A DNA stretch of 64,000 bases from Patescibacteria group bacterium. GTDB lineage: Bacteria > Patescibacteriota > Microgenomatia > UBA8517. Both the position numbers and the translations under genes were made by a program. The stretch is from contig JALHYA010000001.1 of NCBI GenBank assembly GCA_022868165.1, positions 12,937-76,936 of the forward strand. Direction: 5' to 3'. Below are positions 13,324 through 47,636 of the stretch, in pieces. Below the pieces are notes generated by a model. The model did not search any database and had not been told where the DNA came from. It saw only the letters and a list, made by a program, of their open reading frames with translations. Position 1 is the first letter of the stretch; each line of letters begins with the position of its first letter.

Positions 13324-13848
13324 TTAAATTGTATAAGCTAAAGGAAGAGAATCTATCTTCCGCATAAAATACTTAACCTTCCATGCCCATGTAGTGCTCG
13401 GAGGAGCGTAACGTCTGGCGATTTGGTCTATAGAAACGGCACCTTTATCCAAATAGTTTTGTCTAAGGGTTTTGGAAACAACCTCAATAGAGGCGTTCCA
13501 AGAAGGAAAGCTGTAGTCTCCGTTTACCCATCCGTACGCATTGTAAGAGTTATACGGAATCTGTTTTCCGAAAGTGGATTCTACACCTGTGATTGAGGCA
13601 ACAAGTCTCCAATCAAGACCGTTTTTGTCGGCCTCGGCTATAAACTTTCCGGCATATGGAGCCAAGGGAGAATTATATTTCTCCAAAAATGCCTTAAGTT
13701 GAGAAACCCTAAGGTCGCCTGTTTCGCCTACAACAGACGTTCTTAATTGAGCGGATTCGTCGGCCACGCGGGAATCGGCCGATATAACTCCGGCCGGTAA
13801 AAACGCCATAGCGGAGGCGATGAATAAAGCTAAGATTAAATTTTTCAT
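13324..13848 (-). CDS. secreted lysozyme-like / SLT-like protein (paralog 1)
   Basis: Signal peptide, ITGVESTFG (ES-x-F SLT-like catalytic motif), and a paralog at 14783-15406. Family assignment is tentative. Confidence 0.45.
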   Translation of the reverse strand: MKNLILALFIASAMAFLPAGVISADSRVADESAQLRTSVVGETGDLRVSQLKAFLEKYNSPLAPYAGKFIAEADKNGLDWRLVASITGVESTFGKQIPYNSYNAYGWVNGDYSFPSWNASIEVVSKTLRQNYLDKGAVSIDQIARRYAPPSTTWAWKVKYFMRKIDSLPLAYTI

Positions 13849-14782: not shown

Positions 14783-15406
14783 TTATTGCATTTCGGACAT
14801 GAAAGTATTTACGCCGTGTGCCCAGGAGCCGTTTGAGGAAGGAGTATATTTGGACATGATTTGGTCCGGAGTAGTAAGCCCCTCGTCTATGTAATTTTCC
14901 TTAAGACCCTGGGAGACTGTTTCAATTCCCTCTTCGTAGGATGAAAAGCCCAAATTTGATTCGCTGTGAATTCCCCAACCCCAGCAATTATGGGAGCCGG
15001 GAGGAATAATTCTGCAAAGATTGGATTCCTGTTGGGCGATGGCCGTAATGAGCCTGAAATCAAGAGAATATTTATCCGCAGTATCCACGATATGCATGGC
15101 GTAAAGAACGAGTGGTGAGCCGTAGGAAGCCAAATATTGGCTTATTATTTCGGGTCTGGCGTCGGCGGCTTTAGCATTGCCTGCAACGGTGGGGATTGTG
15201 TTGGGCAAAGAAGCATAAACCCGCACTCCGGGTTTAGGCTCCACTATAAGATTGACTGAAGTTGGGGCCATCTTGGCCTGTACGTCCTTATTTTTGGCCA
15301 AAGAAACCAACGAAAACAAACTTGTAAGTAGTGCTATAGGGGTTATCGTAAAGAAAAGACTTACAAGAATTAAGTTTTTCCAGAAAGAAAAGTTGTCTTC
15401 CGCCAT
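14783..15406 (-). CDS. secreted lysozyme-like / SLT-like protein (paralog 2)
   Basis: AIAQQESNLC...NCWGWG aligns with paralog 1. Start trimmed to Met62 (MAEDNFSFWKNLIL signal). Confidence 0.45.
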   Translation of the reverse strand: MAEDNFSFWKNLILVSLFFTITPIALLTSLFSLVSLAKNKDVQAKMAPTSVNLIVEPKPGVRVYASLPNTIPTVAGNAKAADARPEIISQYLASYGSPLVLYAMHIVDTADKYSLDFRLITAIAQQESNLCRIIPPGSHNCWGWGIHSESNLGFSSYEEGIETVSQGLKENYIDEGLTTPDQIMSKYTPSSNGSWAHGVNTFMSEMQ

Positions 15407-15473
15407 ATTTCGCCTTTTGTCAGGATGCCACAAAAAGGGGTCTATAGTCAAGTTTTTGAGGCTAAAAATGGCC

Positions 15474-15518
15474 ACAAAAAAAGAGGGCACACCCTTAACT
15501 CGCGTCAGGTATGTGCCC
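15474..15518 (-). terminator. rho-independent terminator (minus strand) after gene 15552-16031
   Basis: Reverse complement: GGGCACA ... TGTGCCC stem followed by TTTTTTTGTG. Confidence 0.55.
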
Positions 15519-15551
15519 CAGCACCTTGTCATCAGATTTTCCCCAGGTTTC

Positions 15552-16031
15552 TTAGGCCTTGGTGAACACCAACAGGAGGGCGAAGACAATGACGATCACG
15601 ATAACAATCACTCTCCTCCTCTTCATATACGGAGAGAGGGGAACCCGTGCAGGCCGTATCGCTTCCCGTTCCTCCACCGTTAGATGTTTGTACTCATCCC
15701 AACCGATCATCTGCCCGGACCTGTCCCTCCTGGGTTCCCACTGCATCATTAAAAACCAACCGATGAATTCGAGGGTGAAACCCAGAAGCCAGCCGATGGC
15801 CGGATGGCGTCCTTTGCCTTTGGCGACTTTTCCACCCAGCCAAGTCCAGGCGGCCAGGTATACCGCAAAACAGCTCGCCTCCGCCAGGCTCCGCCCCAAA
15901 CATAGCCCGTGGGTCTGCCAAACAGGACCGGCTTGGCTGCAGTCTGAGTGGGCACTCGCTGACATGATCCAGAACCAGCAGGCTGTTATGTACAGGATTG
16001 CCGGTGCTGCAAGAACCCATTTCTTCTTCAT
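15552..16031 (-). CDS. high-GC membrane/lipoprotein-like protein (island gene X)
   Basis: RBS AGGAGGG 5 nt upstream of the ATG. N-terminal signal with ITAC lipobox-like segment, C-terminal IVIVIVIV TM helix. Coding GC is markedly higher than the surroundings. Confidence 0.55.
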   Translation of the reverse strand: MKKKWVLAAPAILYITACWFWIMSASAHSDCSQAGPVWQTHGLCLGRSLAEASCFAVYLAAWTWLGGKVAKGKGRHPAIGWLLGFTLEFIGWFLMMQWEPRRDRSGQMIGWDEYKHLTVEEREAIRPARVPLSPYMKRRRVIVIVIVIVFALLLVFTKA

Positions 16032-16134
16032 CACGCCCTCCTTGTGGCGAATTATTTGACCGGATTGTCAAGGTGCACAAAAATGCCCGATGTTTCGGGC
16101 AAGTAGCTATATTGTACTTCAATAGGTCAATTTT

Positions 16135-16190
16135 CACAAAAAAAGAGGGCACTCACCTTTGATGCTTTCGCTTCGCAGGTTTGTGCCCTC
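16135..16190 (-). terminator. rho-independent terminator (minus strand) after gene 16253-16678
   Basis: Reverse complement: GAGGGCAC ... GTGCCCTC stem followed by TTTTTTTGTG. Confidence 0.55.
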
Positions 16191-16252
16191 ATGCACCCTA
16201 TCGGAAGTTTAACCACCCGCACCCTTGCTGGACACCGCATTGAACTGGCGAT

Positions 16253-16678
16253 TCAATGCGCCTCAGCGCTCCACTCCCATTCTCCCAGTTCACATCTTGT
16301 TGTCTGTCCGAACGATAACTCCGGCCTCAGGTCAATCGTTCCACTCGCCTCCGTCGGCGACGTAAACCGACCCTCCGCCTCCCCGATGCTTGACGAGGAG
16401 ACATTAATGCTGCCATCACGAATCGGAAACGGCATTCCGGATGCCTGGCTGGCCCATGACCCGGCTGAAAACCCGTCGCATCGTACGTCCGTAAGGCTGA
16501 AACCCACAAACGTGATGGCCGCTCCGTCGTCCGAAACGGTAAAGGTGAACGTGCCGCTGCTGGCCCCTCCACTGATATCGATAGGACCGCTGAATGTGCT
16601 CCCAGGCTCAGGCATTGAAGTCCCGCCGCATGCAACCAAAAGCACTGCGAGTAGCACGAGATACATATGCCGTTTCAT
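16253..16678 (-). CDS. high-GC lipoprotein (island gene Y)
   Basis: RBS AGGAGGG then ATG. MKRHMYLVLLAVLLVAC with lipobox LVAC. Ser/Gly/Thr-rich mature part. Start taken at Met17 of the track ORF. Confidence 0.55.
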   Translation of the reverse strand: MKRHMYLVLLAVLLVACGGTSMPEPGSTFSGPIDISGGASSGTFTFTVSDDGAAITFVGFSLTDVRCDGFSAGSWASQASGMPFPIRDGSINVSSSSIGEAEGRFTSPTEASGTIDLRPELSFGQTTRCELGEWEWSAEAH

Positions 16679-16767
16679 CTCGCCCTCCTTGTGGCGAATG
16701 TGTGACCGGATTGTCAAGGTGCACAAAAAACCCGCTTATACGGGCAGTTCCTATATTATACTCTTAG

Positions 16768-16840
16768 TGAGCCGCCCGAGACTCGAACTCGGAACCGTTA
16801 CCTTAAGAGGGTACTGCTCTACCGATTGAGCTAGCGGCCC
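16768..16840 (-). tRNA. tRNA-Lys (anticodon CTT)
   Basis: Acceptor GGGCCGC/GCGGCTC, D-arm TAGCTCAATCGGTAGAGCA, anticodon loop CTCTTAA, T-arm CCGAGTTCGAGTCTCGG. Confidence 0.8.
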
Positions 16841-16852
16841 AAACGCACAAAT

Positions 16853-18277
16853 TCAGGCTATTTTACCATTTCGGGGAATCGAAAGCGAAATAATTTTTCT
16901 CAACTCGTCGATAATAATCCAAAAATCGGGCTTCTCGAGCGTTATCATCTGGAATTGAACGGCGTTGGTAAACACTTTGGAATCTTTTGCGAGTCTAAGA
17001 GAACCTACAAAAAAGCCCGAATTTTTGGGCGATGTCCCCCTAAAGAAAAGTATCCCTGTTCTTCTTGGCTCGATCTCGCCGAAAATCGGAATTTGCAAAT
17101 CTATGTTTTTGTTATCCAGCATTAGAGAAAGTTCTCCGTTTTTCCAAATCGATTGTCCCGTATTTTTGGCCAGAGCAATACCCCAAAACGTTTGATTGGA
17201 ACCAAGAAACGGCGGAATAAATAAGGCCATTATCTCCCCCGAGGTTTCCTGTTGGGGTTTCCCCGATTGTTTCGTCAGCGACGACACATCGTCGTAGAAT
17301 TTATAAAATTTTCCTGCGCTTTGTTTCCAACTGAATTGGGCAAAAAGCCCGTCGGTATAGGAAAGAATAAAAGGAGTTACTGCTACCACTCTTTTATCGT
17401 TCCATACGCTTTCGAAAGCAAATTTGAATTTGTCTCCCAAAGAGTCAGGATTTAAAAAGGCCCTTGTTTTCGGGTCGTCCGTTGTATGTGCCCAACCGGT
17501 TTCGGTGATAAAAACCGGCAGCTCTTTTTTAACCCCCAGAGAAGATAAAAGACTCAATTCCCAAACATAAGTTCTTACGGAACCTCGGCCGGTATCCGTT
17601 TCCGAACCGGTAAAATTGGGATTCGGATATGAGTGGGAAGACCATCCGTCAATGTATTTCAGGGCATCCGGAACGCTACTCACCATATTGGTCAAAAAAG
17701 TGGCCTCGTCCGTTGTATCTTTGGAGTTGGGAGCAGAAGCATCGAAACCCGCAGGCAGGACAAAATAATCAGGATTGTCGGCTTTAAGCTTTGAAGAAAA
17801 TGCCAAAAGATACTCTCCGTATTCTTTGGGGTTAACGAAACCTCCCCACTCCTTGGCGTGGTTGGGCTCGTTTCCGATTATGATATAGCGGTTTTTTATT
17901 ACCCAATTGAGACCGTCAAAAAAAGATATCCAGCCGTCTATTTCATCGGTAGAGGGTTTTTCCCAAGTCGAACCGTCTCCTACACCTTGTGTTGCTATTC
18001 GCACGATAGGAATAAGGTGGGCTCTTCTGGCCTGGTCGAATACCTTCTGCCAAGTGTTTATATCTCTTTGATTCTTTTGAATGACTAAAGTGATGTAGCC
18101 CCAATCCCCCCCGGTGGAATTTACCAAATGAGCAGCATCCTGCAAATCGGAAGAGTTTTCTATATGTATCCCGAATTTGTTATTGGGAACGCTTGTAGGG
18201 TCGTAGATTGCTAATGTTGTTGATGGTATTAGAACAAGAAGAGCCAAAGCAATGAAGATGCAAAAGATTTTTTTCAT
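16853..18277 (-). CDS. secreted glycoside hydrolase, GH5-like
   Basis: IIGNEPN (catalytic acid NEP) and ITETGW (nucleophile TE) motifs. Signal peptide MKKIFCIFIALALLVL. Start at Met13 of the track ORF, 7 nt after the tRNA-Arg 3' end. Confidence 0.6.
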   Translation of the reverse strand: MKKIFCIFIALALLVLIPSTTLAIYDPTSVPNNKFGIHIENSSDLQDAAHLVNSTGGDWGYITLVIQKNQRDINTWQKVFDQARRAHLIPIVRIATQGVGDGSTWEKPSTDEIDGWISFFDGLNWVIKNRYIIIGNEPNHAKEWGGFVNPKEYGEYLLAFSSKLKADNPDYFVLPAGFDASAPNSKDTTDEATFLTNMVSSVPDALKYIDGWSSHSYPNPNFTGSETDTGRGSVRTYVWELSLLSSLGVKKELPVFITETGWAHTTDDPKTRAFLNPDSLGDKFKFAFESVWNDKRVVAVTPFILSYTDGLFAQFSWKQSAGKFYKFYDDVSSLTKQSGKPQQETSGEIMALFIPPFLGSNQTFWGIALAKNTGQSIWKNGELSLMLDNKNIDLQIPIFGEIEPRRTGILFFRGTSPKNSGFFVGSLRLAKDSKVFTNAVQFQMITLEKPDFWIIIDELRKIISLSIPRNGKIA

Positions 18278-18284
18278 CAAAATA

Positions 18285-18358
18285 AGTGACCCAGGCGCGA
18301 ATCGAACGCGCAACCTACTCCTTAGAGGGGAGCCGCTCTATCCAATTGAGCTACTGGG
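18285..18358 (-). tRNA. tRNA-Arg (anticodon TCT)
   Basis: Acceptor GACCCAG/CTGGGTC, anticodon stem GCTCC/GGAGT, loop CCTCTAA, T-arm GCGCGTTCGATTCGCGC. Confidence 0.8.
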
Positions 18359-18364
18359 TCTCGG

Positions 18365-18436
18365 AGCGGGCGATGGGAATTGGACCCACTGTCTCTTCCT
18401 TGGCAAGGAAGCGTTTTACCGGTAAACTACGCCCGC
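18365..18436 (-). tRNA. tRNA-Gly (anticodon GCC)
   Basis: Acceptor GCGGGCG/CGCCCGC, anticodon stem CTTCC/GGAAG, loop TTGCCAA, discriminator U. Confidence 0.75.
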
Positions 18437-18439
18437 GCA

Positions 18440-18460
18440 GTGCCGAGGGCGGGACTCGCC
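18440..18460 (-). repeat. orphan copy of the 3' end of tRNA-Leu(TAA)
   Basis: GAGTCCCGCCCTCGGCACT (19 nt) duplicates the T-arm/acceptor 3' strand of the adjacent tRNA-Leu (18523-18609). No matching 5' half is present. Confidence 0.6.
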
Positions 18461-18522
18461 GTGCAAAGCATTATACCTTACCTGGCGCTATCGATCCCGA
18501 CCTTGAGCACGAGTCATCGAGT

Positions 18523-18609
18523 GCCGAGGGCGGGACTCGAACCCACACGAGGGATTTTACCCTCAAGGGATTTTAAGTCCCTTGTGTCTGCCAATTCCAC
18601 CACCTCGGC
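18523..18609 (-). tRNA. tRNA-Leu (anticodon TAA), class II
   Basis: Acceptor GCCGAGG/CCTCGGC, D-arm GTGGAATTGGCAGACAC, anticodon stem AAGGGA, loop CTTAAAA, long variable arm, T-loop TTCGAGT. Confidence 0.8.
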
Positions 18610-18690
18610 TAGCCACGTAATTATACGACATAATTGACAACTTCACACCATTTGCTTAAGCTGGAATAGACAGCGAAGGGGGGTGAAATA

Positions 18691-19074
18691 ATGAAAAAAG
18701 TTCTTCCGTTTGTTCTTTTCTGGATAGTCAATTCTCTATTTCTTTATCTGGCTTCGGTTGTCTATCCGTTCAAATTTGTTTTGGGTAATTTTAGGTTTTC
18801 GATGCTTTCGGCAACAATCTGGGCCGGCCTTTGGATAACTGTTTTGGGTTGGTTGGCTATTTGGCTGATCGGAAAGCTTAAAATCAAACTTTCGGGCGTA
18901 GCCCAGATGTTTATATCTTATTGGATAGTAAATGCCGCGGCCGTTTGGATAACAGCCCGTTTGGCAACTATTACAGGCTTTGGCATATTCAGTTTTTGGT
19001 GGGCTATCGGCTTGGGACTTATTCTGAATATTGTTCAGTCTGCTGTTTGGAAGCTGGGCAAATTTGAGATGTAA
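18691..19074 (+). CDS. polytopic small membrane protein (possibly DUF360-like)
   Basis: 127 aa with 4 predicted TM helices. RBS GAAGGGGGG upstream. Confidence 0.45.
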   Translation: MKKVLPFVLFWIVNSLFLYLASVVYPFKFVLGNFRFSMLSATIWAGLWITVLGWLAIWLIGKLKIKLSGVAQMFISYWIVNAAAVWITARLATITGFGIFSFWWAIGLGLILNIVQSAVWKLGKFEM

Positions 19075-19093
19075 CCCTGGTTGACCTTCGAGG

Positions 19094-19165
19094 TGCGCCT
19101 GGGGGGAATCGAACCCTCATTTTCGGTTCCGAAGACCGACGCTCTATCCGTTGAGCTACAGGCGC
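19094..19165 (-). tRNA. tRNA-Arg (anticodon TCG)
   Basis: Acceptor GCGCCTG/CAGGCGC, anticodon stem TCGGT/ACCGA, loop CTTCGGA, T-arm GAGGGTTCGATTCCCC. Confidence 0.75.
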
Positions 19166-19201
19166 TTTTTGTGTCTAAATTCAGGTATAATTATACCCCA
19201 G

Positions 19202-20296
19202 ATGAGCGACATTCGCGAACAAATCGAATCGATAGAAAAGGAAATTAGGGAAACCCCTTATCACAAGGGTACGGAACACCATATCGGAAAATTGCGGGCG
19301 AGACGTGCCCGACTCATCGATAAAGAGCTGGGTTTGGAAGCAAAAAAGACCGGCGGCGGGAGCGGCGGAGGATATGCTATCAAAAAACAGGGGGATGCAA
19401 CGGTCGTTTTGGTTGGACCTACCTCCGCCGGAAAATCGACACTAATAAATAGATTTACCAATGCCGAATCAAAGGTTGCCGCTTACGCATTTACGACAGT
19501 ATCTGTTATTCCGGGGATGCTTAAGTATCAGGACGCCTATATTCAAATCTTGGATGTTCCGGGACTTTTGGAAGGCGCAAGTGAAGGCAAGGGGCGTGGA
19601 AAAGAGGTTATTTCCGTAGCCCGTGGAGCCGACCTTTTACTTATAATGACGGATGTTGAAAGAGTCGCTTTTTTGGAAAAAGTTAAAGACGAGTTAAACA
19701 AATCCGGCATCAGAATTAATTCTCTTCCTCCCAAGGTAACCATTGTCAAGAAGAGTTATGGCGGAGTAAATGTTGTCACAAACGTCAAACAGCCGTTGGC
19801 CAAATCGACAATTGCCGAAATGGCCCGTGAATTCGGATTAAGAAATGCAGACATTACGCTAAAGGAATCCGTGAATTTTGAAGATATAATCGACGCTTTT
19901 TCCGGAAACAGGGTCTATTTGCCGGCAATATTTATTATAAACAAAATCGATCAAGAAAAGGATGGTCTCCGATACACCGATACAGATCACGATATCAATA
20001 TTCTAAAGATTAGTGCAGAGAAGGGAACAGGGCTTGATGAGCTCAAAAAGACTCTCTGGGATAAACTGGGTCTAATCAGAGTTTTTCTGGTCGGTCCGGA
20101 CGAGAAACCAAACTTGGACAAACCAATAATTGCAAAAAGCGGCGAGAATTTGGCCAAAGTTGCGGAAAAGCTCTCCACAGATATATTGGAAAGAAAGAAA
20201 CTTGCAAAAATTTGGGGCAATGGAGCACAGTTTCCCGGACAGGAAGTGCCGTTAACCACACCGGCACAGGAGGGAATGCAGGTTAGATTCATTTGA
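19202..20296 (+). CDS. DRG-type (developmentally regulated GTP-binding protein-like) OBG-family GTPase with TGS domain
   Basis: N-terminal IEKEIRETPYHKGTEHHIGKLRARRARL, G1 GPTSAGKST, and FTTVSVIPGMLKYQDAYIQILDVPGLLEGASEGKGRGKEV closely match the eukaryotic/archaeal DRG signature. Start at Met18 of the track ORF. Confidence 0.6.
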   Translation: MSDIREQIESIEKEIRETPYHKGTEHHIGKLRARRARLIDKELGLEAKKTGGGSGGGYAIKKQGDATVVLVGPTSAGKSTLINRFTNAESKVAAYAFTTVSVIPGMLKYQDAYIQILDVPGLLEGASEGKGRGKEVISVARGADLLLIMTDVERVAFLEKVKDELNKSGIRINSLPPKVTIVKKSYGGVNVVTNVKQPLAKSTIAEMAREFGLRNADITLKESVNFEDIIDAFSGNRVYLPAIFIINKIDQEKDGLRYTDTDHDINILKISAEKGTGLDELKKTLWDKLGLIRVFLVGPDEKPNLDKPIIAKSGENLAKVAEKLSTDILERKKLAKIWGNGAQFPGQEVPLTTPAQEGMQVRFI

Positions 20297-20324
20297 GCAG
20301 CCTTTTTGATATAATAAATGACTT

Positions 20325-20410
20325 GCAGGTGTGGCGGAATGGTAGACGCGCACGGTTCAGGGCCGTGTGCCCCTTATACGGGCGTGGAGGTTCAAATCCT
20401 CCCATCTGCA
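20325..20410 (+). tRNA. tRNA-Leu (anticodon CAG), class II
   Basis: Acceptor GCAGGTG/CATCTGC, D-arm TGGCGGAATGGTAGACGCG, anticodon loop TTCAGGG, long variable arm, T-arm GGAGGTTCAAATCCTCC. Confidence 0.8.
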
Positions 20411-20413
20411 CAG

Positions 20414-20497
20414 CGCACTCGTGGCGGAATTGGCATACGCGATAGCTTGAGGAGCTATGCCCGTAAGGGCGTGGGAGTTCGAGTCTCCCCGAGTGCA
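20414..20497 (+). tRNA. tRNA-Leu (anticodon GAG), class II
   Basis: Acceptor GCACTCG/CGAGTGC, anticodon stem ATAGC/GCTAT, loop TTGAGGA, T-arm GGGAGTTCGAGTCTCCC. Confidence 0.8.
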
Positions 20498-20704
20498 CTG
20501 CGTCGGAGCTCGACTTTAGCGCTTTGTTTCTCTTAAAGAAACTTCGCTGTTTTCAGTCGGCTCCTCCTTTCAAAATTGCTGCGCAATTTTGGTAAAGCGT
20601 TATACAAAAATCCGTAGGATTTTTGAGAGGAGGAACAAGCGAGCGGAAAAGATTTGTGCTTCGCAAGAAGCCAAATCGAAATAAGCAAGCTTCGTTCTGA
20701 CGAA

Positions 20705-20778
20705 GGTCGCTTAGCTCAGTTGGTTAGAGCGTGCGGTTTACATCCGCAAGGTCGGGGGTTCGAGACCCTCAGCGACCA
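20705..20778 (+). tRNA. tRNA-Val (anticodon TAC)
   Basis: Acceptor GGTCGCT/AGCGACC, D-arm GCTCAGTTGGTTAGAGC, anticodon stem TGCGG/CCGCA, loop TTTACAT, T-arm GGGGGTTCGAGACCCTC. Confidence 0.85.
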
Positions 20779-20782
20779 CTCA

Positions 20783-20855
20783 GCCGAGGTAGCCAAGGTG
20801 GTCACGGCGGGCGCCTGAAGAGCGTCAGATATGTGTTCGACTCACATCCTCGGCA
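20783..20855 (+). tRNA. tRNA-Phe (anticodon GAA), tentative
   Basis: Acceptor GCCGAGG/CCTCGGC, anticodon stem GGCGC/GCGTC, loop CTGAAGA, T-arm ATGTGTTCGACTCACAT. The D-stem has only 3 clean pairs. Confidence 0.55.
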
Positions 20856-20877
20856 CTTCTGCAAAGCAGAATGGCCC

Positions 20878-21141
20878 ATGTATAAAGTTTATTTGCTTAG
20901 AAGCAAAAAGATAGCAAGCAAATCATACATTGGAATAACTATTAAGTCTGTACATGAACGCTTACAAGAACATAATGAAGGTTTATCTAGATATACCAAA
21001 TCGTTCAGACCTTGGGAGATAATTTACTATGAAAATTTTTATTGTAAAACATGCGCAAAACAAAGAGAAAAGTTTTTGAAGTCAGGATTTGGGTATCGTT
21101 TTAGAAAATTGATCCTAGAGAGTTATACTAAACTTAGATAA
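20878..21141 (+). CDS. GIY-YIG nuclease-domain small protein
   Basis: MYKVYLL...YIGITIKSVHERLQEHNEG (GIY-YIG/URI motifs), 87 aa. The track ORF upstream of this Met is read-through of tRNA genes. Confidence 0.65.
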   Translation: MYKVYLLRSKKIASKSYIGITIKSVHERLQEHNEGLSRYTKSFRPWEIIYYENFYCKTCAKQREKFLKSGFGYRFRKLILESYTKLR

Positions 21142-21160
21142 TTAATTCTTCTTTGAAGAA

Positions 21161-21233
21161 CGGAGCGTGGCTCAGCTGGTAGAGCGCCTGGTTTGGGACC
21201 AGGAGGTCCCCGGTTCGAATCCGGGCGCTCCGA
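21161..21233 (+). tRNA. tRNA-Pro (anticodon TGG)
   Basis: Acceptor CGGAGCG/CGCTCCG, D-arm GCTCAGCTGGTAGAGC, anticodon stem CCTGG/CCAGG, loop TTTGGGA, T-loop TTCGAAT. Confidence 0.85.
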
Positions 21234-21252
21234 CAAGATAATAGGTTTTTAA

Positions 21253-21323
21253 GCGGGATTAGTTAATCGGCTTAACAACAGCTTTCCAAGCTGTGAAGAG
21301 GGGTTCGACTCCCCTATCCCGCT
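21253..21323 (+). tRNA. tRNA-Gly (anticodon TCC)
   Basis: Acceptor GCGGGAT/ATCCCGC, anticodon stem ACAGC/GCTGT, loop TTTCCAA, discriminator U. I first misread it as Trp and corrected the call on re-folding. Confidence 0.75.
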
Positions 21324-21356
21324 CCGAGTCTTCGAGGAGAGGGTCAAGGTAATCCT

Positions 21357-47289: not shown

Positions 47290-47549
47290 AGCAGGCGCTG
47301 CGAGAAAACTAGTGAGGACAATCCTCAGCTACAAGCAGCAACCTGCCCCGAGTATTTATGCCGACGGCACAACCTGTGGAGACAACCCGCCTCGCAGAAT
47401 GAGGTAAGTTGTGCAACCCATGCACCGCCGGCAGGAAACCGCCTAGGACGCGCGCTGCCATGAACAGCTGTCACCGAAACACCGAGAGGGGCGGCGTTTC
47501 GGCCAAGTGTCCTAGACGGTCGCCGTTCCGGCAGGATGCCGGAACAGCT
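47290..47549 (-). ncRNA. GC-rich structured RNA-like region downstream of the atypical tRNA-like gene; unclassified
   Basis: By eye about 60% GC versus low-to-mid 40s elsewhere. On the minus strand there is a perfect 8-bp hairpin TTCCGGCA-TCC-TGCCGGAA and a 7-bp hairpin CCGAAAC...GTTTCGG. It ends with two hairpin+T-run elements at about 47290-47330. Track ORFs 47325-47621 and 47409-47666 lie on opposite strands with no RBS. I found no match to RNase P, SRP or tmRNA motifs. Confidence 0.35.
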
Positions 47550-47636
47550 ATGCTGACGCCAGGATTTGAACCTGGAACCTTCCGGGTGCGCACCGAGCGA
47601 GTTACCCGAACGCTCTTCCAATTGAGCTACGTCAGC
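47550..47636 (-). tRNA. atypical 87-nt tRNA-like gene (anticodon arm non-canonical; identity unresolved)
   Basis: Canonical acceptor GCTGACG/CGTCAGC, D-arm TAGCTCAATTGGAAGAGC and T-arm CCAGGTTCAAATCCTGG. The 36 nt between is GTTCGGGTAACTCGCTCGGTGCGCACCCGGAAGGTT, which has no standard 5-bp/7-nt anticodon arm; best alternative folds are given in the corresponding finding. TTGACA-17-TATATT promoter upstream. Confidence 0.4.

Follow-up and report, generated by a model that had tools for sequence, protein, structure and literature searches.

Does a sharply GC-rich segment that lies directly behind a tRNA gene have to be foreign DNA, or can it be a native part of the genome that carries it? The question is raised by a 64,000-nt stretch of DNA (hereafter the window) on contig JALHYA010000001.1 of a Patescibacteria group bacterium (assembly GCA_022868165.1), which DnaE homologues place in Candidatus Woesebacteria. 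In this window two minus-strand genes, referred to here as X and Y, form a GC-rich island immediately downstream of tRNA-Lys(CTT). The original prediction, made from the sequence of the window, regarded the island as a probable horizontal acquisition that could have come from a high-GC donor. Our analysis upholds a compositionally distinct, accessory and structurally variable envelope-protein segment abutting a tRNA gene, and it points to a different origin. We consider it probable that the island is a two-unit array of self-contained envelope-protein expression cassettes that recombine and are native to the lineage.

Shared modules around X and Y

The two genes, their AGGAGGG ribosome-binding sites, the hairpin and T-run terminator behind each of them and the adjacent tRNA gene were all found as originally described (Table 1). 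What had been overlooked is that X and Y have their flanks in common, consisting of a promoter/leader region of ~90 nt upstream and a terminator formed by a hairpin and a T-run downstream. The 5' regions of the two genes share an exact 27-nt and a 26-nt (96%) direct repeat at a spacing of 646-647 nt, and the two terminators share an exact 18-nt repeat, whereas 0 of 100 shuffles gave such repeats by chance. A repeat search and nhmmer profiles each located two copies of the 5' module and two copies of the 3' module in the window, and none elsewhere in it.

Table 1. Coordinates and composition of the tRNA gene, the two cassettes and the block that differs from the sister lineage (locus L032), in window positions
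Feature	Coordinates	Strand	Evidence and description
tRNA-Lys(CTT)	16767..16840	(-)	ARAGORN; Rfam tRNA model, 61.9 bits
5' module, copy 1 (Y)	16679..16766	(-)	Repeats D2 and D3; nhmmer E=5.8e-29; copies aligned from 7 loci; -10 TATAAT 16755-16760; small GC hairpin and T-run 16724-16745; TTGACA 16712-16717; palindrome TGAC-N6-GTCA; Shine-Dalgarno AGGAGGG 16683-16689; fold predicted
Y	16253..16678	(-)	141-aa lipoprotein with signal peptide and lipobox LVAC; predicted 8-stranded beta-barrel
3' module of Y	16138..16252	(-)	Long imperfect hairpin 16145-16190, then T7; inverted repeat I1; nhmmer E=1.5e-20; terminator-type hairpin and T7 (16138-16190) at -26.7 kcal/mol, z = -3.5
5' module, copy 2 (X)	16032..16139	(-)	Promoter and terminator scan; repeats D2 and D3; nhmmer E=2.2e-32; promoter-like TTGTGA-17-TACAAT 16139-16111; hairpin and T-run 16084-16101; TTGACA; palindrome; Shine-Dalgarno AGGAGGG
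X	15552..16031	(-)	159-aa membrane protein with four predicted helices and a conserved Cys pair
3' module of X	15466..15551	(-)	Hairpin and T7 15476-15519 with conserved upstream stretch; terminator-type hairpin (15476-15519) at -22 kcal/mol; nhmmer E=4.2e-22; aligned with L001 and L006; 97% identical to the L031 copy
Block differing from L032	16680 to ~15830	(-)	Sliding-window identity; starts in the leader and ends inside X

Read on the gene strand, each unit begins with a -10 element (TATAAT or TACAAT), continues through a short GC hairpin and T-run into a leader directly before the open reading frame (ORF), and closes behind the ORF with a long imperfect hairpin, a T7 run and then GTG. The leader has the form GTGCACC-TTGACA-ATCCGGTCA...ATTCGCCACAAGGAGGGCG-ATG, and across cassettes it is nearly invariant as GTGCACC-TTGACA-...-ATTCGCCACAAGGAGGGCGAG-ATG. 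Both genes of the window start behind the same sequence, ACAAGGAGGGCG(A/T)G ATG; the ATG of X lies at 16031 and its ORF extends to a GTG at 16034. Such a cassette would be an autonomous transcription unit for an envelope protein, made up of a sigma-70-like promoter (-10 TAnAAT), a hairpin and U-run, the leader, one ORF for either a lipoprotein or the X membrane protein, and a terminator hairpin with its T-run. The hairpin and U-run at the 5' end might stabilize that end of the transcript, act in attenuation or insulate the unit from upstream transcription.

The tRNA gene lies directly upstream of the island, and its 3' end adjoins the -10 element of the Y cassette, a junction that is found likewise in the sister lineage described below. 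Because the tRNA 3' end stands where the -35 half of the module normally lies, transcription of Y may depend on a weak hybrid promoter or on read-through from tRNA-Lys over the small hairpin. A further promoter-like pair within the leader, TTGACA-17-CCACAA, was rejected as a true promoter, since its -10 lacks the key A2 and T6 and since a transcript started there would leave out the conserved Shine-Dalgarno sequence. When Rfam was searched over 15300-17000 at a relaxed E-value, the tRNA alone passed and neither module was matched; the best non-tRNA match, ncr982 on the terminator, reached 25 bits against a gathering score of 50.

Neither X nor Y had a significant match in Pfam, NCBIfam, PHROGs or PADLOC, and a weak match to the NCBIfam model 'invert_tail' (18 bits against a cut-off of 37) covered the signal peptide region only. 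X is annotated by NCBI as MUP46_00230, 'Patescibacteria group bacterium'. Its predicted structure (predicted local distance difference test score, pLDDT, of 79) has four helices and gave no informative or specific fold match in a structural search. According to the alignment of homologues, the first loop holds the conserved Cys pair and an invariant WDEYK precedes the last helix, within the core motif AKGKGRxPxIGW...WEPRRD..G.MIGWDEYKH. At codon 18 of X (15978-15980) a Cys is inserted in the first helix (ITA-C-WFW); the insertion, which is present in 0 of 17 aligned homologues, creates a lipobox-like ITAC.

Y is predicted to be an 8-stranded beta-barrel lipoprotein that resembles NHBA and fHbp of Neisseria. 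The neisserial proteins NHBA, fHbp, TbpB, LbpB and HpuA likewise carry an 8-stranded beta-barrel domain on a lipidated N-terminus. However, structural alignments of Y with the neisserial barrels give a sequence identity of just 10-15%, and no Pfam or NCBIfam match connects them. Patescibacteria are thought to have a single membrane, and Slam-dependent export as known from Neisseria would not apply to Y if its host is single-membraned. The products of the cassettes probably form a variable set of cell-surface proteins.

Variable arrays and a mosaic X gene

The sister lineage (L032) encodes flank proteins that are 94-96% identical to those of the window, with adjacent DNA 95-100% identical per 40-nt window, and a DnaE 97% identical to that of the window (P0026) comes from the same ENA sample. 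Here the order is a 486-aa gene, tRNA-Lys, one cassette (X*) and a 207-aa gene, and Y is absent at exactly this site, a presence/absence polymorphism. The leader of the L032 cassette is a hybrid, with a hairpin half of the type of the window's Y copy and a downstream half of the type of its X copy. The block that differs between the two lineages runs from the Y ORF and its terminator through the promoter/leader of X and takes in ~200 nt at the start of X; L032 has ~230 nt of an X'-type 5' end in its place.

The X gene of the window is itself a mosaic. Its first ~230 nt are 93% identical to X of three further loci, L031, L015 and L043, whereas its last 148 nt are 64% identical to these and 80-86% identical to L032. 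X of L032 is composite as well: over its first 360 nt it matches the X' allele of L016 at 92-98% identity, while its 3' end is window-type. The switch point in X lies in the conserved core that encodes AKGKGRxPxIGW...WEPRRD.

The loci L015, L016, L031 and L043 have shared flanks that are 98-99.5% identical and are taken as one population. They carry four arrangements of the cassettes (Y-X, X-Y, ..X-Y-X and X'-Y) at a site between Lon/tRNA-Glu(CTC) and GreA-LysRS. At some junctions the terminator of X is truncated in its loop and fused to the leader of Y. Breakpoints have no fixed position; some lie in the leader, others in the 3' hairpin loop or within the X ORF. The idea that the island is an assembly chimera was rejected, since it or variants of it turn up in independent assemblies from NCBI, Logan, ENA and JGI.

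The repeated ~90-nt 5' modules, the ~60-nt 3' modules and the core of X would provide homology for ordinary RecA-type recombination. Such recombination could delete, duplicate, reorder and swap cassettes within and between arrays, both at the site downstream of tRNA-Lys seen here and at the one that in relatives follows tRNA-Glu, beside GreA. It would require no integrase, and the outcome would be a variable surface repertoire.

The flanks of relatives were found with a 20-base leader pattern and with nucleotide profiles of both modules. Modules border X, Y or unrelated lipoproteins in L001, L006, L010, L014, L015, L016, L026, L031, L032, L036 and L043. Homologues of X with modules are present in L001/L002, L006, L010 (Woesebacteria RBG_13_46_13), L032, L036 and L043, and Y with modules in L015, L016, L031 and L043. 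Unrelated lipoproteins behind the same leader have lengths of 304 aa (L014), 228 aa (L026) and 175 aa (L006). The contents of the units vary further: in L006, X and a 100-aa ORF follow the 175-aa lipoprotein within one unit; L026 has a three-cassette array headed by a 169-aa PPC-domain lipoprotein behind a different upstream sequence; and in L014 the lipoprotein cassette lies beside a homologue (60% aa identity) of the window's 207-aa gene. In all, cassettes occur in at least six lineages or populations of Woesebacteria of ~44-47% GC.

Between lineages, nucleotide identity is 84-91% for the modules, 69-80% for X and 66-74% for the housekeeping flanks. X has thus diverged in step with its neighbours at the GreA locus, while the modules are under a constraint of their own. 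The X family comprises 30 representative clusters (E <= 1e-3) among 1.84 billion proteins, and Y five clusters in the protein database. Matches of the leader pattern in coding regions of Limisphaerales, Pedobacter, Verrucomicrobiia, Terriglobales and several metagenome contigs were set aside as chance hits on account of their context. As judged from the sequences recovered, this type of cassette is confined to a single subclade of Candidatus Woesebacteria.

Several homologues depart from the standard cassette. A contig of 64% GC (L033, 5990-6640; also L034 and L035) carries an X homologue of 58% aa identity with a diverged but recognisable leader (-10 GTAGAAT) and a 3' hairpin that shows one compensatory A-T to G-C change and is without a T-run. 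Clusters P0011, P0013 and P0014 may stem from the same kind of organism, and the cassettes may have an ancient link to a high-GC lineage. In L037 (3385-4122) and L038 (1519-2256), represented by P0024 and P0025, a 245-aa variant of the X family keeps the conserved core and has a lipoprotein domain (LSGCS) in place of the N-terminal transmembrane helix; these genes are without the 5' and 3' modules, on contigs of ~49-52% GC. The X cassette of L036 (880-1530) has a decayed 5' hairpin and 3' module and a gene GC of 0.50, and it looks to be losing its modules. In the L001/L002 lineage, ~70 nt of unrelated sequence (L001 9890-9960) split the 5' module between the hairpin and TTGACA, so that the module profile finds the promoter half and the leader half as two separate matches.

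Composition, age and origin of the island

The original prediction of a sharp GC-rich segment was confirmed by computation. GC content is 0.55 at 15552-16678 against a window mean of 0.436, and the highest 1200-nt value, 0.552 from position 15501, lies ~4 standard deviations (sd) above the mean of all 1200-nt windows (0.437, sd 0.027). GC content at third codon positions (GC3) is 0.669 in X and 0.613 in Y, compared with 0.432 +/- 0.056 in 40 other ORFs (maximum 0.571). When the X and Y proteins were recoded in host codon usage GC3 came to ~0.48, so the observed excess arises at the codon level, beyond amino-acid content alone. The shift in codon usage toward GC-rich third positions therefore stands, although the favoured codons, mostly G- or C-ending (CTG, CGG, CCG, GCG, AGC and ATC), differ slightly from the GCC, GGC and CGC first named.

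A high GC3 is not peculiar to this genome, as cassette ORFs have a GC3 of 0.52-0.72 throughout Woesebacteria hosts of ~44-47% GC. In contrast, X of L033 has 59% GC inside its 64% GC contig and so lies below its host. The cassette family thus holds an intermediate composition everywhere, ~52-59% GC, and does so stably in every host. Translational selection is an unlikely cause of the high GC3, since genes that are likely to be highly expressed (candidates for L19 and enolase, and trigger factor) reach only 0.40-0.51. Incomplete drift toward host composition fits poorly as well, because X co-diverges with its flanks. The candidates that remain for the GC excess, and that are more probable than recent import, are selection on transcripts and, at a recombination hot spot, GC-biased gene conversion, which has been proposed for bacteria (PMC4450053).

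The age of the island was estimated from synonymous divergence (dS). Comparison of the window with the L031/L043 population gives a dS of 0.255 in Y and of 0.151 in the 5' part of X, while between the window and L032 it is 0.105-0.355 for four flanking genes. The values for Y and X fall within the range of the flanks, which indicates that the shared block dates back roughly to the divergence of the window from L032 and was not freshly imported. Y has a non-synonymous to synonymous ratio of 0.16-0.18 and the 5' part of X one of 0.35, showing that both X and Y are real genes under purifying selection. Judged by these divergences, X and Y are long-standing residents.

These results bear directly on the proposal that the island was recently taken from a high-GC donor, perhaps a host on which the organism lives as an epibiont, and came to lie at the tRNA-Lys 3' end by insertion, its composition not yet having drifted. 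Such an origin would account for GC and GC3 values that are the highest in the window, for an island that abuts a tRNA 3' end, for the lack of Y at this site in L032 and for an X homologue in a 64% GC contig. Yet the same modules with the same elevated GC recur in the Woesebacteria lineages and populations of ~44-47% GC described above, X sits at this site in L032 too, and the dS of Y equals that of the flanks while X co-diverges with its neighbours at the GreA locus. Even the X of the 64% GC contig is less GC-rich than its host (0.59 vs 0.64). The geometry of integration at a tRNA gene holds as far as the adjacency to the tRNA 3' end, and no further: breakpoints fall inside the modules and X, and neither an integrase nor an att repeat was detected. 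The absence of an integrase, already remarked on in the original prediction, was borne out by Pfam scans of ORFs within ~+/-10 kb and of large ORFs farther in the window, which gave no integrase or recombinase, and none was seen beside the related arrays examined. A repeat of the tRNA-Lys 3' end at the far boundary was likewise not found, the best alignment against 15380-15570 scoring 7.5 against a shuffled mean of 7.54, and the repeat search gave no att-like tRNA repeat. Adjacency to a tRNA, deviant composition and presence/absence variation are all found here, yet they are not specific to integrase islands. Homologues of the same composition do largely occur in related low-GC genomes, though the family is rare and not ubiquitous. 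Thus the prediction of horizontal acquisition is partly supported, in that the island is variable and accessory, yet it is not foreign; a recent high-GC donor is very unlikely and already largely refuted.

Gene-sized units bounded by conserved imperfect hairpins, in variable order and content, also call to mind integrons or another site-specific system in which the 3' hairpins would serve as attC-like sites or the palindrome as a recombinase target. The conservation of the loop of the X-type 3' hairpin across lineages, and the persistence of that hairpin without a T-run in the 64% GC contig, speak for such a system. Unlike integron cassettes, however, each of these units has its own promoter and T-run terminator, with a TAnAAT promoter in every full unit. 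No tyrosine or serine recombinase and no IntI, attI or attC core was found near any array examined, and inspection of the sequence revealed no GTTRRRY-type core at the unit boundaries. Moreover, the breakpoints are spread over homologous stretches (leader, 3' hairpin loop and X ORF) and do not fall at fixed sites, and we regard site-specific recombination as highly improbable. Least credible to us is a prophage remnant or a set of phage 'morons' left in the chromosome. Morons are promoter-gene-terminator units inserted between phage genes, and small lipoproteins and membrane proteins are their typical cargo. The cassettes fit this definition as promoter-ORF-terminator units, with a sigma-70-type promoter, an intrinsic terminator and a composition unlike that of their neighbours. 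But morons do not share common flanks as the cassettes do, no phage genes flank any array, and the arrays sit between housekeeping genes. Furthermore, the 5' pattern, the 3' pattern and the X peptide patterns were unmatched in 2.9 million viral contigs, the best PHROG match was not significant (E=0.54), and PADLOC gave no match to a known defence system.

The reading of the island as a native array of recombining cassettes has points that weigh against it as well. The recombination mechanism has been deduced from breakpoints and not observed. For a promoter it is unusual that a hairpin and U-run come right behind the predicted -10. One leader variant is without the palindrome TGAC-N6-GTCA, which makes the importance of the palindrome doubtful, and it may be dispensable. 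The GC3 excess of ~0.2 is far above the effects commonly credited to GC-biased gene conversion in bacteria (compare PMC4450053). X is also present, with recognisably related flanks, in the 64% GC contig. Finally, the population with arrays at the tRNA-Glu/GreA site could be either the window's sister lineage or a different Woesebacteria lineage. In the first case, exchange would have been ectopic, between two arrays of one species complex; in the second, it would have taken place between genomes of different species.

The second case corresponds to a rival in which Y and the 5' block of X came from another Woesebacteria species through DNA uptake and a double crossover in the leader and the X core. 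Patescibacteria are known to be naturally competent, and the protein database shows no further X homologue for the metagenome-assembled genome of the window. The block shares 91-98% identity with L015, L031 and L043, which carry it at an unrelated locus, while the 3' end of X that adjoins it is just 64% identical. The dS of the block (0.15-0.26), however, matches the genome-wide dS between the window and L032, as descent or exchange within one complex predicts, and this match favours the reading of one complex. The 90%-identity protein cluster with the window's DnaE comprises just two sublineages, one of the window type and one of the L032 type. The latter is present in JGI, ENA and Logan data and so is the L015 population; as the sister lineage and this population occur in both JGI and ENA, they could be the same organism. 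No housekeeping genes are common to the L015/L031/L043 loci and the window/L032 loci compared, and GC and GC3 do not discriminate between them. On balance we regard transfer from another species as possible but rather unlikely.

Building on the native-array reading, we tentatively propose, as a suggestion that may well prove wrong, that the modules act as portable 'docking' homology by which a subclade of Woesebacteria swaps surface-protein genes between loci and between species without a recombinase. The arrangement would be a counterpart of the integron that works through homologous recombination. The leader, with its hairpin and U-run, TTGACA, TGAC-N6-GTCA palindrome and looped Shine-Dalgarno sequence, might then be an undescribed cis-regulatory element that co-controls the cassette set, and the GC3 excess might be the footprint of very frequent gene conversion.

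Known variable surface loci and the neighbourhood of the island

In organisation, the closest analogues of the cassettes appear to be the erp/ospEF genes of Borrelia, the variable lipoprotein loci of Mycoplasma and phage morons. The upstream homology box (UHB) lipoprotein genes of Borrelia burgdorferi, erp/ospE/ospF/elp (Marconi et al. 1996, J Bacteriol 178:5615, as cited in PMC10016077), are portrayed there as diverse surface-lipoprotein genes behind a highly conserved upstream promoter/operator region. Recombination in or near that region is described as giving rise to mosaic genes, and the organism is, like the present one, a host-dependent bacterium with a small genome. A comparable arrangement is found here, where Y, the 304-aa, 228-aa and 175-aa lipoproteins and the non-lipoprotein X stand behind one leader in mosaic, variable arrays. 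In contrast to the Borrelia genes, which the same account places on cp32 prophage plasmids, the cassettes are chromosomal, downstream of tRNA genes and without phage context. From what that account conveys, they also differ in having a conserved 3' terminator module, a non-lipoprotein cargo (X) and a composition markedly GC-richer than the host. The likeness is one of organisation only, since no Pfam, NCBIfam or PHROG match pointed to homology with Erp, OspE/F or Vlp/Vsp.

The vlp, vsp, vsa and vpma families of Mycoplasma are tandem lipoprotein arrays with near-identical 5' untranslated regions and signal peptides, and they are switched by site-specific inversions (Xer-like recombinases) or by homopolymer tracts in promoters. 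Like these families, the cassettes form tandem arrays that have such 5' regions and signal peptides in common and whose content varies between close strains. Unlike them, the cassettes are co-oriented units, each with its own promoter and terminator, with no recombinase nearby. They also have no variable tract between -35 and -10, their T-run lying upstream of the -35. The locus therefore belongs to none of the Borrelia UHB, Mycoplasma or moron systems; as a recombining set of surface-protein genes with common flanks, it is set apart by its occurrence in Patescibacteria, the conservation of both flanks and the striking GC3 excess.

A life attached to other cells is assumed for Patescibacteria (the Candidate Phyla Radiation), and to our knowledge little has been established about how they vary their surface; our literature search found no comparable locus in this group. 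The leader of ~45 nt and the terminator module of ~60 nt offer an easy marker for the variable envelope genes of one Woesebacteria group, by which the turnover of envelope genes can be followed in metagenomes. The locus also calls for caution in screens for horizontal gene transfer, as an abrupt GC-rich island next to a tRNA gene may be no foreign DNA at all but a recombination hot spot that is native and has long been resident. If gene conversion does drive the GC3 excess, the cassettes would be an unusually strong bacterial example of it.

Two paralogues of ~37-39% aa identity (judged via their L032 orthologues) lie at 13324-13848 and at 14783-15406, the latter just downstream of the island and the former 1 kb beyond it, and one of them has a weak match to a glucosaminidase domain. 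They are probably cell-wall hydrolases, which would place the cassette array in an envelope-related neighbourhood. Farther along, 18286-21325 is a dense cluster of 11 tRNA genes in ~3 kb, broken by a 127-aa membrane protein (weak Phage_holin_4_2 match) and a DRG/Obg-type GTPase; L032 shares these tRNAs, partly rearranged.

The second-highest GC region of the window is a stretch of ~230 nt on the minus strand (47322-47550) directly downstream of a tRNA-Ser gene, where 450-nt windows reach 0.55. It contains no convincing ORF and had no Rfam match even at a relaxed threshold, and it may be an undescribed structured RNA. The tRNA-Ser itself (47551-47636; Rfam tRNA 56 bits) was assigned the anticodon ACT by ARAGORN, with an unusual A at position 34.

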